This document shows, piece after piece, positions 3,301 to 37,558 of a DNA stretch of 64,000 nucleotides. The notes below the pieces were generated by a model. The model had not been told where the DNA came from. It searched no databases and saw only the letters and a list, made by a program, of their open reading frames with translations. This stretch comes from Promethearchaeota archaeon (GTDB lineage: Archaea; Asgardarchaeota; Lokiarchaeia; Sigyniarchaeales; SOKP01): contig JAHLWP010000004.1 of assembly GCA_019057865.1 (NCBI GenBank), positions 1 through 64,000 of the forward strand, written 5' to 3'. Made by a program: the position numbers and the translations under genes. How positions within the stretch are numbered: position 1 is the first letter of the stretch; the number at the start of each line of letters is the position of its first letter.

Positions 3301-3463
3301 ACCTATTTACTATTAAAATTTGATTAAAAATTGTTAAGATTTAATTAATTTTTCTTCATAAATGTTTCTTTTACAAGAAGAAGAACCATTAAAAGTCAAT
3401 CGATTATGTTGAAAAAAGGTCATATAAAATTTAATAAAAAAAAAGAGTTATTTCATTTGATAA

Positions 3464-3569
3464 ATTAAACATTGTTCAGATTTTAAAAATAACATAATCA
3501 TCGAAATAGAGGTTTGTTCAAACCCAGCTTGTTTCAATTTAATGCCCAAATTAAGGATGGGTTTTTGAA
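3464..3569 (+). promoter_or_regulatory. Candidate Ile-rich leader frame and switchable hairpin upstream of ileS
   Basis: Frame 3464-3568 reads IKHCSDFKNNIIIEIEVCSNPACFNLMPKLRMGF*, with ATT as first codon and no upstream ATG; inverted repeat TTCAAACCCA (3517-3526) / TGGGTTTTTGAA (3558-3569). Confidence 0.35.
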
Positions 3570-3684
3570 ATAAATGATTTAGTAGGTTTTTTAAAATTTA
3601 TATTCACATATATAAGTATTTAGGTGAATTCATTAAGTTTTTTAATTTGAATTTCTTATAATATACAATTACATATTCATTTAG

Positions 3685-31528: not shown

Positions 31529-32257
31529 TTATAAATTTAATTCCTTTCTCTGAATATTAATTAGTTGCATAATGCCTTTTTGTCCTAACTCTAATACGTC
31601 ATTCAATTTATCTTTGTTAAAAGTAGCCCCTTCTGCTGTGCCTTGAATTTCTATAAATTCTAGATCTTCATTTAAAACTAAGTTAAAATCAACATCTACC
31701 TTAGAATCTTCGCTATAATTAAGATCTAATATTACTTGATCATTTTTGATGCCTAATGAAATTGCCGCCGTAACTTTATAATCTGGAAATTCATGAATTA
31801 TTTGCTCATTATATAGATAATTTATTGCATCAAAAACAGCTACAAAAGCCCCAGTTATCGATGCACATCTCGTACCTCCATCTGCTTGTATTACATCACA
31901 GTCTACCTTGATTGTGCGTTCTCCTAATTTTTCATAATTAAAAGCAGCACGCATACTTCGACCGATTAATCTTTGGATTTCGTGTGTTCTTCCTTTTATC
32001 CTTTGTCTCTCTCTCTCTCTTGAATTTCGTACTTGTGTTGCTCGTGGTAACATATTATATTCTGCCGTTATCCATCCTGTTCCAGTATCTGCTAAAAACC
32101 GTGGAACATAATCCACAACTGAAGCTGTAATAATTATTTTCGTCGCACCTTGAGTAATTAAAACTGATCCTTCTGGGTATTTAAGATAATTCCTTTCTAT
32201 CGTTATTTTTCTCATTTCGTCAAATTTCCTTCCATCAAACCTTACTTTTCCAAGCAT
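31529..32257 (-). CDS. rph: Ribonuclease PH, bacterial type
   Basis: GWITAEYNMLPRAT, GRTHEIQRLIGRSMR, DCDVIQADGGTRCASITG, EIQGTAEG. Confidence 0.92.
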   Translation of the reverse strand: MLGKVRFDGRKFDEMRKITIERNYLKYPEGSVLITQGATKIIITASVVDYVPRFLADTGTGWITAEYNMLPRATQVRNSRERERQRIKGRTHEIQRLIGRSMRAAFNYEKLGERTIKVDCDVIQADGGTRCASITGAFVAVFDAINYLYNEQIIHEFPDYKVTAAISLGIKNDQVILDLNYSEDSKVDVDFNLVLNEDLEFIEIQGTAEGATFNKDKLNDVLELGQKGIMQLINIQRKELNL

Positions 32258-32405: not shown

Positions 32406-33497
32406 TTAAGTCATAGGATATGATCCTAAAATTTTATGCCATATCACAATTGTATTCATGTTTTCTAAAACTTTCTTTACCTTAGGATTATCCTTATCCC
32501 CTTCAAAATCCATAATAAAAATATACTCCCAACGGCCTCTTCTACGAGGACGGGACTCAATTTTAAGCAAATTAATTTCTGCATCAGCATAAAGTTTTAA
32601 TACTCTGTATAAAGCTCCTGGAATATGTCGGGTAACAAATAATATTGATGTCTTAATTTTGCCTTCTTTTTCAATATTCTCTTTCTTCGAAATTATAAGG
32701 AATCTTGTAGAATTTAATAAATTATCCTCGATTTTTGAGTGTAAGATTTTTAAACCGTAAACATCACTGGCAAATTCCGTACCAATCGCGGCATAAGACT
32801 CACTATTTAATTCCTTAACTCTACGAACTGCTTCTGCTGTAGAATTAACATCTATTATATCCGCTGTTGGTATATTTGCTTTAATCCAATTTCTTGTTTG
32901 AACAAAAGCTTGAGGGTGGGATAAAATAGTTCTAATCCTTGATAAATTGGATCTTTCCAATGAGATTAAATTTTGAATAATCCGAAGCTCAATTTCTCCA
33001 TATATAAAAATATCTTTATCGATTAACAAATCAAGAGTTTCTCTAACTGTACCTTGAAGGCTATTTTCAATAGGAATTACCCCAAATTCTATATTTTCTT
33101 TTTCAATATTTATAAAAATCTCTGATATAGAATTATAGGGAAGAAATTCTGTACCTGCTTTGGGAAAAAATTCAAGAGCAGCTTGATGCGTAAATGTTCC
33201 TTTAGGGCCTAGATATCCGACTTTTGGAATAACCCCTTGAATTGATCTACTGGCACTCAAAATTTCCTTCCATATTGCCTTAACACTTTCTGGTTTTAAT
33301 ATTTTTGATTGAGATTTTATCCTTTCAAGTATCTCTCTTTCTCTTTCGGGCTGAAAAACTTCAAGATTTAACAGTTTTTTGATCTCTCCTATCTTAGAAA
33401 CCGTTATACCTCTTTTATTCAACAGTTCAATTATCTCACTATCAATCTGATCAATTAATTTCCTATATTCTTTTAATTGTTTAGTATTTTCTTCCAT
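32406..33497 (-). CDS. pheA: Chorismate mutase / prephenate dehydratase
   Basis: N-terminal CM domain, YLGPKGTFT, PIENS, SHPQA, TRF, ESRP. Confidence 0.95.
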   Translation of the reverse strand: MEENTKQLKEYRKLIDQIDSEIIELLNKRGITVSKIGEIKKLLNLEVFQPEREREILERIKSQSKILKPESVKAIWKEILSASRSIQGVIPKVGYLGPKGTFTHQAALEFFPKAGTEFLPYNSISEIFINIEKENIEFGVIPIENSLQGTVRETLDLLIDKDIFIYGEIELRIIQNLISLERSNLSRIRTILSHPQAFVQTRNWIKANIPTADIIDVNSTAEAVRRVKELNSESYAAIGTEFASDVYGLKILHSKIEDNLLNSTRFLIISKKENIEKEGKIKTSILFVTRHIPGALYRVLKLYADAEINLLKIESRPRRRGRWEYIFIMDFEGDKDNPKVKKVLENMNTIVIWHKILGSYPMT

Positions 33498-33527: not shown

Positions 33528-35204
33528 TTATAAAAAATCCTGTAGATTTAATTCGAAAGCAGCAACAGGAAACTCTAATTTAAAGTTGAGTAAAACTTCA
33601 GGATGAATTTCGCCTATCTCACCTACTTTACTACCCTTTAAATAAATCTCTCCATAACGACCATCTATATAGCTAAGATTCTTATTAGGTTTTATTTCAA
33701 AATCGTTTTCATATCCAAGTGAGATCATTATAAAGTCTAAAGTAGATCTAATCTCTGTGAAATCAGCTTCATCATGATAGGAAGTAGCAGAAAGATGGAC
33801 TTCTCTTTTAGTACCCGTTTCCTCATCAGGGTCCAATAATATTACATCTCCTACTTCAAAAATCCTTATTGGCTTTTCTTCAGATCTGTTTAATAGTAAA
33901 GTATCCATTAGTTGAGGTAATAATTTCTTCCTCGTTGTATTGTATTCTTTTGAAATTGGATTAGCAATTTCAACTATATTTGTTTTATCATAATTTTGCT
34001 TCATAAGATCATATTGTTTTTCAGAACTTGTTAGGATAAAATTAAGTATTTCTAAATATCCTGCCCCTATCATAATTTTTCTTATTTTACTTGAAAAATC
34101 TTGGATAGGATGATATGCTCCTACACCACCTTCCCTAATTGTAAGTGGTAAATTAAAATATCCATAACCAATAGCACATTCTTCAGTAAAATCTACTGGA
34201 TGCATTATGTCTCCTCGGTATGCCGGAACCCAGATATCTAAGTAGCCATTCTTTTTAGATTTCTTAGCCTCCATTCTAATCTTTTGAAAACATTTTATCA
34301 TTTCTGTCAATGATAATTTTAAGCCAATAACATCATTTATATAACCAGCTTTTACTTCCCATTTTTTGGGATTTAGATTAGGAGTGATAATTTCTTTTCC
34401 TCCTTGATAACTTACTTTTACGCTTTCTATTTTTGCTCCCATATCTAATAACGTTGTTGATAAAATATTCAATGCTAAATTCACTGCTTTAAAATCAGTA
34501 CCAGTTAAATCCAAAAACAAATTTTCTGTATCATCTGTAACAGTAGTAAGTACACCATTTATAATTGGGGGAAATGAAAGAACTTCATCGTTATTATCAA
34601 AAATTATAGGATAAACGTCTTTCCCTTCTAAAATATGGGCATATTCAATACCTTTATCATGCAATAACAAAATCTCTTCCAAATTCATAGGATATCCATC
34701 TCCATGTAGAGGTATGAAACTAACTGAATCTGGCTTTACTGCTGTATACCTATAAGGAGGTATAATTTTATCTAAATCATGAACTCCAATAGCAACCTTT
34801 CTTCTGTCTCTTCCTACTGCCCAATGTAAGTGTTCTTGTATATTCATTAAAGTAGCAACCTCATCCTCATCTAAATCAATATCTCGAATAACTCCGCAAA
34901 CTATATATGGTCTAACTTTTTTTACACTAGGATCTACATTGAGGGTAATTTCTCCTGGTCTAACTTCGTATGAGGGAATTCCTAGTTCGATCTCATAATA
35001 TCCTTTAAGTGCCCTAGCAATTCCCTCCGGACTTGAAAAATCAGGTCTATTGGGATTATATTCTACCTTAACTTTTTGTTCTTCTACGTTAGTATCTTCT
35101 AAATCTAATCCTATCCATTGTAAATCGTATTCTAATTCTTTTAAGTCTAATTTCTTTCCAACTAACCTTTCTAATCTTTCAATTTTTAATTCAATAGTAG
35201 GCAT
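33528..35204 (-). CDS. pheT: Phenylalanine--tRNA ligase beta subunit (archaeal type)
   Basis: NRPD, RRKVAIGVHDL, SFPPIING, RGDIMHPVDFTEE, GEIHPEVL. Confidence 0.95.
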   Translation of the reverse strand: MPTIELKIERLERLVGKKLDLKELEYDLQWIGLDLEDTNVEEQKVKVEYNPNRPDFSSPEGIARALKGYYEIELGIPSYEVRPGEITLNVDPSVKKVRPYIVCGVIRDIDLDEDEVATLMNIQEHLHWAVGRDRRKVAIGVHDLDKIIPPYRYTAVKPDSVSFIPLHGDGYPMNLEEILLLHDKGIEYAHILEGKDVYPIIFDNNDEVLSFPPIINGVLTTVTDDTENLFLDLTGTDFKAVNLALNILSTTLLDMGAKIESVKVSYQGGKEIITPNLNPKKWEVKAGYINDVIGLKLSLTEMIKCFQKIRMEAKKSKKNGYLDIWVPAYRGDIMHPVDFTEECAIGYGYFNLPLTIREGGVGAYHPIQDFSSKIRKIMIGAGYLEILNFILTSSEKQYDLMKQNYDKTNIVEIANPISKEYNTTRKKLLPQLMDTLLLNRSEEKPIRIFEVGDVILLDPDEETGTKREVHLSATSYHDEADFTEIRSTLDFIMISLGYENDFEIKPNKNLSYIDGRYGEIYLKGSKVGEIGEIHPEVLLNFKLEFPVAAFELNLQDFL

Positions 35205-35213
35205 TTTATCACC

Positions 35214-36755
35214 TCATTTAAGATATGATTGCTTTCTCAACCATTTAATTGGATTAATATAAAAATCTCTAATATCTGTTCGATCATAATATAGCATTGC
35301 AATTCTTTCAAGACCTTGACCCCAAGCTAATACACGTGTAGGCTCTTTAATTCCCCATGGATAGGTAACTTCTGGTCGAAAAATTCCTGAGCCTCCCATT
35401 TCTAACCATTCATCTAATTTATCATAATATACCGAAACTTCCATACTAGGTTCTGTATAAGGAAAGAATCCTGGTCGAGTAACTATCTTCTTAAAACCCA
35501 TTTTTCTATAGAATTCCGATAATAATCCAATTAAATCACATAGAGTAACATTATCATCGATTACAATCCCTTCTACTTGAGTGAATTCTGCTAAATGAGA
35601 TTTATCAAGTTTTTCATTTCGAAATACTCTATCCACACAAAATACTTTTACTGGTACTTTCTCGTTGTTTCTATAAAATTGGGCCAATCTCCTCATAGTT
35701 GTGGCAGTAGTATGGGGTCTTAATACCGTTTTCTTTGCAATGTTTTCATCCCATTCATACCCCCATCCAATAGATCCACTATCACCGCCATTTTCATGAG
35801 TTTTTTTCACAGCCAAAACTCTATCCTTTTCTGGCAACTTTGCGACTTTTGGGTTATTTAAATAAAATGTATCTTGTAATTCTCTTGCAGGGTGATCTTG
35901 TGGTTGAAATAAAGCATCGAAATTGTAAAAAGCACTTTCTATAATTGGACCCCTTATTTCTATAAAACCCATTGATAAAAATATTTCTCTTATTTCATTA
36001 ATTAAATTTACTAATGGATGAATTTTCCCTGCCTTTAATAACGGACCTGGTTTAGTGACATCAAAGGGTTTCAAATTATAATTTTTCCAAGTGCCAGAGC
36101 TTAGCATCTCTGAAGTAATTTTGCTAATTTGCTTCAATTCTTTTATTTCAGAAATTGGGATAGATTTACCTTTTTTTGTTAAATAAATAATTCTTTGAGT
36201 TTTACGAACCTTGTTCATCAATTTCCTTTTGTTTAAAATATCAAATTGCATTAATTCCTCTTTTGATAAAATAGAATAATCGACTATCTCATTACTCTCG
36301 AATTTCTTAAGAAATTTTTCTAATTGTGTTTCAGGAAATTCTTCAGCAATAAGAAAGATTTTATTTTCCCCCGTAGCTTTACTTTGGGCAACCCATTTAT
36401 TTTTTTTTAAATTAGAAATGCCAACATAAAAAAGATTTTCATCTAATTTAGCTTGTCCTCTCAAATCATCTAAGTTAATTTCTTTAATCTCATTTTTTAA
36501 TAATATTTGAAGAATTTGACGTTCTGGTAATCCTTTTTCCAAATAAGTTAACCCTTCTTGACTTAAAGAAACTTGATACATTTCTTCTTCTCTAAATCCT
36601 CCTAAGTTATTATCAATTAAATCATTTATAGCAGACATGAGTACAATATAATCAACATTAAGTTCTTTTGCTAATTTTGATGCCTCTATTTCAATATCTT
36701 TTTCTTGAAGAATTTTCAAAATATTAATAACTTGTTTTTTTAGCTCAATACTCAT
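35214..36755 (-). CDS. pheS: Phenylalanine--tRNA ligase alpha subunit (archaeal/eukaryote type)
   Basis: GLPE, GKIHP, NFDALFQPQDHPARE, FRNE, FPYTEPS, AWGQGLER. Confidence 0.96.
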   Translation of the reverse strand: MSIELKKQVINILKILQEKDIEIEASKLAKELNVDYIVLMSAINDLIDNNLGGFREEEMYQVSLSQEGLTYLEKGLPERQILQILLKNEIKEINLDDLRGQAKLDENLFYVGISNLKKNKWVAQSKATGENKIFLIAEEFPETQLEKFLKKFESNEIVDYSILSKEELMQFDILNKRKLMNKVRKTQRIIYLTKKGKSIPISEIKELKQISKITSEMLSSGTWKNYNLKPFDVTKPGPLLKAGKIHPLVNLINEIREIFLSMGFIEIRGPIIESAFYNFDALFQPQDHPARELQDTFYLNNPKVAKLPEKDRVLAVKKTHENGGDSGSIGWGYEWDENIAKKTVLRPHTTATTMRRLAQFYRNNEKVPVKVFCVDRVFRNEKLDKSHLAEFTQVEGIVIDDNVTLCDLIGLLSEFYRKMGFKKIVTRPGFFPYTEPSMEVSVYYDKLDEWLEMGGSGIFRPEVTYPWGIKEPTRVLAWGQGLERIAMLYYDRTDIRDFYINPIKWLRKQSYLK

Positions 36756-36932
36756 GGTTCTAAATTAAATTAATTATATTTTTCAGTATATATATTTTAA
36801 ATATTTAATCTATTTAAATCTTTCGTGGAAAAACTCGCTGTAAATCGCTCTATCATGAATTAGAGTAATAATATATAATAAAAAAGATTATATAACACTA
36901 TTTTTTAGTAAAAGTCTGAAAATAATGCCGCA

Positions 36933-36974
36933 GCCAAGGGAATAACATCAAATCTATTTAATTATTACCTTGGC
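36933..36974 (-). promoter_or_regulatory. GC-rich hairpin in the pheS 5' region overlapping the leader stop codon
   Basis: Minus strand GCCAAGG-T-AATAA...TTATT-C-CCTTGGC, followed by T-runs. Confidence 0.6.
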
Positions 36975-37051
36975 AGAATAAAAACATCAAAGAAAAATGA
37001 ATCTTGATTGAGTTTATATTTTATACACATATTATCTATATAAGAACTCAT
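36965..37051 (-). CDS. Candidate Phe-rich leader peptide (28 aa) upstream of pheS-pheT-pheA
   Basis: MSSYIDNMCIKYKLNQDSFFFDVFILPR*; second in-frame ATG at 37030; TTATAAAT 27-34 nt upstream of the first ATG. Confidence 0.5.
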   Translation of the reverse strand: MSSYIDNMCIKYKLNQDSFFFDVFILPR

Positions 37052-37117
37052 ACTTTACTCTACTCAAGTATTCATTTATTTATAATTGAATATATTAATT
37101 CTAACTAAAAAATTTTG

Positions 37118-37558
37118 CTATAAAAGTTTCTCTCTAATAGATGTAGAACTAATTTTTTGGTTATTTTCATCCTTTATTATCGATATAACAATAATTATTA
37201 AAGGTTTAAATCCCTTACTTTCTCTAATCTCGTTAATTTTTACAGCTACTTTATAAGTTTCCTGACTAACGAATATTCCATCATATTCAGGTTCATTGAT
37301 GGGGGGTCCATATATATCATTTAATTCAATGATTTGGACCCTAGTAATGTCTGCTATTGTTTTAATGAAATCTTCTAAATTACGTTTTCTTGTTTCATAA
37401 TTTTCAAGTTTTGAAACTGCCTTTTTGTTCTTTAATAATTTTTCAGTAGTTAAACCTATTACAATATTATTAGAAATAGATAAAGCTGTTTTTATTAAAG
37501 ATTTATGACCCTCATGAAGATGATCAAATGTCCCGCCCATACCGACTTTGTTTAAAAT
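37118..37558 (-). CDS. coaD: Phosphopantetheine adenylyltransferase (archaeal/eukaryote type)
   Basis: GGTFDHLHEGH, YGP, VSQET, INEIR, KISSTSIR; probable ATT start at 37558 (first ATG at 37540). Confidence 0.88.
   Translation of the reverse strand: MLNKVGMGGTFDHLHEGHKSLIKTALSISNNIVIGLTTEKLLKNKKAVSKLENYETRKRNLEDFIKTIADITRVQIIELNDIYGPPINEPEYDGIFVSQETYKVAVKINEIRESKGFKPLIIIVISIIKDENNQKISSTSIREKLL

Follow-up and report, generated by a model that had tools for sequence, protein, structure and literature searches.

A conserved Phe-codon leader ORF upstream of pheS-pheT-pheA, a candidate sensor of Phe-tRNA charging in a family of Lokiarchaeia

The window analysed here is a stretch of 64,000 nucleotides from a Promethearchaeota archaeon of the Lokiarchaeia. 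Its minus strand carries, in order, coaD, pheS, pheT, pheA and a gene for a bacterial-type RNase PH, and coaD and pheS are separated by a gap of 362 nt. NCBIfam profiles matched pheS, the archaeal pheT, the prephenate dehydratase (pheA), RNase PH and PPAT above their cut-offs (Table 1). The first-pass annotation, made from the sequence alone, had proposed a Phe-sensing leader in this gap, upstream of genes for Phe charging and Phe synthesis, and the profile matches confirm what these genes encode. Against the model for the bifunctional chorismate mutase/prephenate dehydratase, pheA aligned over its full length with a score below the cut-off. RNase PH (31529-32257), directly after pheA, was matched above the cut-off by TIGR01966, of bacterial type, and below the cut-off by the Rrp41 model.

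Table 1. Genes and predicted elements of the coaD-pheS region, in window coordinates.
Feature	Coordinates	Strand	Basis
coaD (PPAT), upstream neighbour, outside the element	37118..37540	-	PRK00777
P1, promoter-like motif AAAATTTTTTAG	37105..37116	-	conserved distance to the hairpin; function predicted
S1 5' arm, in the 5' UTR	37063..37077	-	species-matched duplex energy
Leader ORF, 28 codons, ending FFFDVFILPR-stop	36965..37051	-	coding constraint across 55 dereplicated relatives
S1 3' arm, codons Q-D-S and first Phe codon	36995..37007	-	complementarity to the 5' arm
Phe control codons, also the U-richest stretch of the leader	36980..36997	-	Phe counts and third-base bias
S2 hairpin, 5' arm with the last codons and stop	36933..36974	-	covariation
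Conserved tail after S2	36926..36932	-	conserved in alignments
Palindromic box TCTA-N8-TAGA, candidate transcription-factor site of P2	36849..36864	-	phased spacing
P2, BRE-TATA-like motif CGAAAGATTTAAATA, candidate internal pheS promoter	36811..36825	-	conservation
pheS, Phe-tRNA ligase alpha	35214..36755	-	PRK04172, 533 bits (cut-off 350)
pheT, Phe-tRNA ligase beta	33528..35204	-	TIGR00471, 580 bits (cut-off 283)
pheA, chorismate mutase/prephenate dehydratase	32406..33497	-	PRK11898, 279 bits (cut-off 219)

Upstream regions of pheS were collected from the family and dereplicated to 55 sequences. The relatives, mostly labelled Promethearchaeota, form one Lokiarchaeia family, and because the sequences are kin the counts overstate independence. 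The short ORF with Phe codons that the first-pass annotation had noted before pheS was found where it had been placed and is conserved in the family; wherever the upstream DNA is intact, nearly all family loci have the hairpin, and with it a frame whose end follows the consensus FFFxFFILPRE-stop. Identity over codons -22 to -10 is 39%, and this stretch contains a single in-frame stop in 715 codons, compared to 59-79 stops in each of the other five frames (n = 55). The start lies mostly at codon -26, with ATG, TTG and ACG exchanging in place, and the stop is at +3 in 48/55 sequences (TAA in 38, TGA in 6, TAG in 4). One locus has an in-frame stop inside the leader. At four loci of the divergent genus g9 the frame is shifted: it apparently opens with ATT, stops one base short of the hairpin and holds one or two Phe codons. 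No frame was open from the leader into pheS, by frameshifting or read-through, at any of the 55 loci.

The Phe codons of the leader (36997-36989 and 36982-36980) lie immediately before the hairpin, where the eight preceding codons contain a mean of 4.0 Phe, compared to 0.3 further upstream (n = 55). The base following an in-frame TT was C in 75 cases and A in 9; in non-coding spacer the corresponding counts were 53 and 205. TTC makes up 35% of the leader Phe codons, compared to 20% genome-wide. When changes were placed on the tree, the Phe columns changed mostly at the third base, and purine changes at these third positions (11 of 30) were modestly rarer than in control columns (306 of 545). 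In the N-terminal half, changes fall equally on the three codon positions, which argues that the peptide itself is not selected there. Near the end of the leader a Pro codon is invariant at all three positions, and Leu-to-Pro, Ile-to-Asn and Arg-to-Gly/Ser changes occur with pairing mostly kept. The last Phe codon is an invariant TTT, which suggests a constraint at the RNA level too. The Phe tract is 66% U, with a run of at least four U in 40/55 sequences. An alignment of relatives, which the first-pass annotation had suggested as a check on its proposal, gives a conserved Phe-codon uORF with C-biased third bases. Collectively, these comparisons support the view that the leader ORF is translated and that its Phe codons are selected as codons.

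The leader stop lies in a hairpin, S2. Two short arms over the stop (36974-36968 and 36939-36933), described in the first-pass annotation, are part of a longer helix of 13 bp, in which 36974-36962 pairs with 36945-36933 and which is conserved and covaries in the family, with 89% of cells pairing. One pair is G-C in 24 sequences, G-U in 19 and A-U in 10, and across a 17-pair structure 40 cells change on both sides, compared to 18 in shuffles (0/500). The spacer between the 6-nt cores is 20-35 nt. Since RNAalifold on the family alignment gave no structure, pairs were counted on named structures instead. This covariation identifies S2 as a hairpin of the leader-strand RNA. The conserved tail behind it is possibly a 4-bp extension of S2 past a 3-nt bulge, and the putative extension pairs in 70% of cells. 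An intrinsic terminator, with a hairpin followed immediately by a U-run, was not found, as a purine-rich conserved tail follows S2; five or more U occur within 27 nt after S2 in 22/55 sequences, and a run of at least four in 32/55, with 23/55 lacking such a run. A conserved helix competing for the 3' arm of S2 was likewise not found downstream in the 55 relatives, and there is therefore no classical antiterminator/terminator pair. A weak 7-bp stem that joins the region of the last Phe codon to that of the stop, an alternative pairing for the 5' arm of S2, is paired in 82% of cells and was set aside, being without clear covariation.

A second stem, S1, encloses the start codon of the leader ORF. 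Duplex energies of arms from the same species averaged -9.6 kcal/mol, compared to -6.9 +/- 0.3 kcal/mol for swapped arms (0/5000 permutations), and this signal was seen both in the two main genera and in the remaining sequences. Two control pairings were not significant in the same test. For S1, 80.5% of cells pair, compared to 31-49% when the arms are slid. Column-wise compensatory changes in S1 were not above those in shuffles; the support for S1 is conserved complementarity plus the comparison of matched with swapped arms, in which kin are not independent. The 3' arm of S1 accounts for the letter-for-letter conservation of its codons, Q-D-S and the first Phe codon. In many relatives the 5' arm (37075-37064) reads as a three-codon ORF of a start, two codons and a stop, which is probably a by-product of S1; in four relatives this mini-ORF runs in frame into the leader ORF.

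Most Phe codons are single-stranded between S1 and S2. When RNA under an assumed ribosome footprint was masked and the rest folded, a ribosome on the first Phe codons melted S1 and left S2, and a ribosome at the stop melted S2 and let S1 close; that S2 is lost at the stop is already set by the footprint assumed and does not count as separate evidence. The first-pass annotation had proposed that stalling on the Phe codons switches the RNA fold or the exposure of a U-tract. An exchange of this kind between S1 and S2 is consistent with the masked folding, but the specific switch it had drawn, in which 7-mers near the hairpin change partners, has all its sites here and each of its three 7-mers conserved in only 1/55 sequences.

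Two promoter-like elements flank the leader. P1 lies 131-157 nt, mostly 141-144 nt, before the hairpin in most relatives and is present also where coaD is not adjacent. Motifs like P1 are also kept upstream of ileS and of the leuS and trpB2 leaders described below, and AATTTTTA is enriched in divergent compared to convergent intergenic DNA. Transcription from P1 would start near 37083-37080 and give a 5' UTR of ~30 nt, rather than the near-leaderless transcript that had been envisaged. The TATA-like TTATAAAT (37085-37078), which had been taken for the leader promoter, is present here but conserved in only 2/55 sequences. P2 is among the most conserved blocks of the coaD-pheS gap, and its distance to the pheS start is 61-64 nt in most relatives; motifs of its class are ~3-fold enriched in divergent intergenic DNA and peak 60-75 nt before start codons. 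The palindromic box precedes the P2 TATA by exactly 46 nt in most relatives, and in other genera the spacing is 34, 55-56 or 65 nt, in roughly helical steps. Compared to P1, P2 is more strongly conserved and nearer to consensus. Upstream regions of tRNA genes gave no usable promoter consensus. These patterns make it very probable that a promoter for pheS itself lies downstream of the hairpin. The first-pass annotation had regarded a pheS start downstream of 36900 as evidence against its proposal; such a start is predicted, from P2 with its box (36864-36811). The leader could then not be the only on/off gate, and the case for a simple on/off attenuator is weaker, but the leader is not explained away. 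A second strong match to the box, at G000:C66:117281-117296, is likewise 46 nt before a TATA-like 8-mer, and the gene that follows encodes a protein of 319 aa that weakly matches a DnaJ zinc finger; the two copies may form a small regulon. At three loci of genus g6 the spacer between the hairpin and P2 is shortened by ~50-75 nt and the leader and TATA stay, with the box lost in one of them (L063).

Within one genome, Phe-rich small ORFs are common, numbering 113 among 2284 small ORFs and occurring in 107 of 1514 upstream regions. At least four Phe codons together with a hairpin of -12 kcal/mol or below at the stop were found in 2/2284, one of which is the pheS leader. The caution in the first-pass annotation that Phe codons arise by chance in such DNA therefore holds for the ORF by itself but not for the ORF with its stop hairpin. 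The single leader folds modestly better than shuffles (z -2.0). This single-leader pattern is weak, and the case therefore rests on conservation.

A covariance model of the element gave matches in 21/25 genomes of the family and none in ~125 other Asgard genomes searched, with a sensitivity limited in that the model misses genus g9. Each genome has one match, next to pheS wherever both can be placed; one assembly has a second match on a duplicate contig end, and no further copies were found in the source genome. The element stands just after coaD at 30/55 loci. At the other 25, some of them short, coaD is absent or displaced and the leader stays. In other families in which coaD is adjacent to pheS, the gap of ~30-126 nt is too short for the element. 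pheA closely follows pheT in most family members checked, and in most other families it is unlinked to pheT or was not found beside it. Behind pheT at three loci (G012:C25, G079:C50 and G089:C1) pheA is cut to a chorismate mutase part of ~90 residues; the leader is kept in G012 and G079 and masked in G089. Persistence of the leader where only the chorismate mutase part of pheA remains suggests that the leader tracks pheST.

An unbiased scan found a Leu-rich leader ORF before leuS (G000:C1:28118-28260), whose identity was confirmed by profile. This leader has 26-32 codons and is conserved in 25/25 loci, with no stops in 345 codons of its frame, compared to 31 and 48 in the other frames. Its last 12 codons contain 6.7 Leu, and its stop lies at the foot of a hairpin. 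With the stop occupied, the predicted folds show a competing helix followed by U-runs, and the U-rich loop of the hairpin is complementary to a conserved purine stretch downstream, a pairing that could form a pseudoknot or a competing helix. A clear internal promoter was not found in the leuS leader region, so read-through there should be a positive output. A Trp-rich leader ORF lies 226-157 nt before trpB2 (G000:C80) and is followed by a hairpin and a U-rich tract; it was found in 14/25 loci, and closer to trpB2, ~30-70 nt before its start, there is another conserved block. Per 12 codons, Phe, Leu and Trp number 4.0, 1.2 and 0.0 in the pheS leader, 0, 6.7 and 0 in the leuS leader, and 0.2, 0.8 and 4.4 in the trpB2 leader, the last set having been picked for its Trp content. 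Trp codons are not explained by U-richness, and sensing of cognate codons is therefore the simplest common reading of the three leaders. An Ile-rich frame with a hairpin before ileS (3400-3684) was rejected because it occurs only in the closest relative; the whole family shares a promoter-like motif ~50 nt before the ileS start. No obvious leader was seen before the other synthetase genes inspected, and the Glu and Lys enzymes were not located. Several further features were observed in the same genome (G000). LeuRS-like pieces occur at G000:C73:12022-13041 and G000:C49:5035-7941 besides the full archaeal leuS, and serS (C23) and ilvD (C41) look interrupted in the assembly. TrpE (PF00425) and HisG (PF01634) gave no family match in this 99.7% complete assembly, in which trpB2 is present.

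We consider it very likely that the leader senses Phe-tRNA charging, by one route or another. Our main reading, to which we give a probability of about 0.5, is that a stalled ribosome masks U-rich RNA from the termination factor aCPSF1, so that read-through into pheS-pheT-pheA rises when Phe is scarce. aCPSF1 is encoded in the genome (TIGR03675, 883 bits). It binds U4 tracts, archaeal termination proceeds via U-tracts without a required hairpin, and a Lokiarchaeota orthologue terminates transcription in Methanococcus (PMC7515710, PMC8716108). The transcript from P1 would have a short 5' UTR, and a ribosome would load on the leader before S1 closes. With ample Phe-tRNA the ribosome would reach the stop, melt S2 and leave, upon which S1 would shut the start codon and keep a second ribosome from loading. 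The U-rich Phe codons and the pyrimidine-rich 3' arm would then be bare, aCPSF1 would cleave, and transcription would end before pheS. With scarce Phe-tRNA the ribosome would wait on the Phe codons, covering the main U-tract while S2 stays folded, and the polymerase would read on, adding pheST-pheA mRNA to a basal supply from P2. Read-through from P1 may add little to pheS, given that P2 is better conserved and closer to consensus. More tentative, and rather less probable than this reading itself, is the full proposal that the Phe control codons themselves are the aCPSF1 U-tract, that the 5' stem limits the leader to one ribosome, that the output tops up a separate, factor-controlled promoter, and that the set of Phe, Leu and Trp leaders arose within Lokiarchaeia.

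The same sensor could be wired the opposite way, with S2 and the U-rich spacer acting as a terminator on stalling; with ample Phe, transcription from P1 would then repress P2, and starvation would free it. This would fit the strongly conserved P2 with its phased box, placed 111-129 nt behind S2, the run of four or more U after S2 in 32/55 sequences and the presence of S2 in the stalled state. We nevertheless think such interference unlikely, because the U-run is split from S2 by the purine-rich tail and is absent in 23/55 sequences, the leuS leader is laid out alike yet lacks a clear P2, P1 seems to be the weaker of the two promoters, and the hairpin-P2 spacer is deleted in some members of one genus. 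A little less probable again is that the ribosome senses Phe-tRNA with an output in the processing or stability of a long mRNA, or in ribosome loading on pheS, rather than in termination; in its processing version, cleavage would occur at the bare U-tract and S2 would be a roadblock to a 5'-3' nuclease. S2 is indeed stable and conserved, no terminator-type helix is conserved, and aCPSF1 is both an endo- and an exonuclease (PMC13681488). Yet S2 lies ~217 nt from the pheS start, no helix joins the leader to the pheS start region, and no frame leads from the leader into pheS (0/55).

The leader could instead be an independent small gene whose product, either the peptide or the ~160-nt RNA, works in trans, with PheRS or the factor of the P2 box as possible targets, much as the bacterial leader peptide peTrpL has a trans role (PMC7298713). 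Its own promoter-like motif, while pheS has P2, and its conserved C-terminal residues are in keeping with this. We regard it as improbable since the N-terminal two thirds change freely, the replacements near the C-terminus are tolerated with pairing mostly kept, one genus loses the last residues by a frame change, and each genome has its one match beside pheS wherever both can be placed. The idea that no codons are sensed at all, and that what separates coaD from pheS is a structured terminator or insulator whose Phe codons are a by-product of its U-richness, gains something from the abundance of Phe-rich small ORFs in an AT-rich genome and from the position just after coaD at 30/55 loci. It would, however, leave the open frame, the conserved start and stop and the C-rich third positions unexplained, as well as the persistence of the leader without coaD and the Leu and Trp counterparts, of which the Trp one is G-rich, and we judge it slightly more improbable still. 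Masking of U-rich RNA from aCPSF1 by a stalled ribosome remains our preferred reading.

Ribosome-mediated attenuation is a textbook bacterial mechanism, and E. coli pheM-pheST and pheL-pheA are leader-peptide attenuators (Rfam Phe_leader). The archaeal leader resembles pheM and pheL in having a short ORF with clustered Phe codons, an otherwise free peptide and the same downstream genes; in both, the stop codon lies inside a hairpin arm and the ribosome position would decide the folding. It differs in lacking a conserved terminator hairpin with an adjacent U-run and a conserved antiterminator partner, in an ORF about twice as long whose start codon is enclosed by S1, in its archaeal promoters with a second one downstream, and in that one leader serves both pheST and pheA. 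An Rfam search of the element gave no leader family among the matches up to an E-value of 10, and in seven loci nothing reached gathering score. T-box riboswitches, which are untranslated and bind tRNA directly, also sense cognate tRNA charging before synthetase genes; the archaeal leader, in contrast, has a frame under coding constraint and matched no T-box Rfam model. Nascent-peptide arrest of the TnaC, SecM or ErmCL type, in which the motif is kept as amino acids and synonymous sites are free, was rejected, as the Pro codon is invariant at all three positions and its neighbours vary with pairing mostly kept. TnaC arrests via its nascent peptide and free tryptophan, whereas the archaeal leader conserves codons, not peptide.

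Factor-dependent leader control is known from E. coli tnaC with Rho and from terminator-less mycobacterial Cys leaders (PMC1262725; 10.1101/834739). As in these, the archaeal leader has no classical terminator, and a stalled ribosome is proposed to shield pyrimidine-rich RNA, but the proposed factor is aCPSF1/FttA, a nuclease, and not Rho. Both parts of such control are found here, in that aCPSF1 is encoded and a U-rich Phe tract is available for a stalled ribosome to cover. By analogy, the pheS leader would work like pheM/pheL attenuation, though it has no terminator/antiterminator pair and no Rfam match; it stands nearer to factor-dependent leaders, tnaC among them. The sister leaders for Leu and Trp recall Streptomyces leuS and trpS, which are predicted classical attenuators (PMC1262725) and likewise have cognate-codon leader peptides before aminoacyl-tRNA synthetase genes; the Streptomyces attenuators carry terminator and antiterminator hairpins of bacterial type, and the likeness is one of layout. 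An archaeal leader-peptide attenuator was not found in the literature searched, leaving aside a Trp minigene of Methanothermobacter. This minigene, reportedly placed before trpY in the 2005 work of Xie and Reeve on trp regulation, is a possible precedent.

Direct evidence that archaeal transcription and translation are coupled was called scarce in a 2025 review (PMC13681488). A short, defined leader makes this coupling testable, the more so as a Lokiarchaeota aCPSF1 already works in Methanococcus (PMC7515710). If the proposed mechanism is true, it would connect the leader peptides of bacteria and uORF control in eukaryotes with a CPSF73-like nuclease, and would reveal by what means the closest archaeal relatives of eukaryotes read the charging of tRNA.
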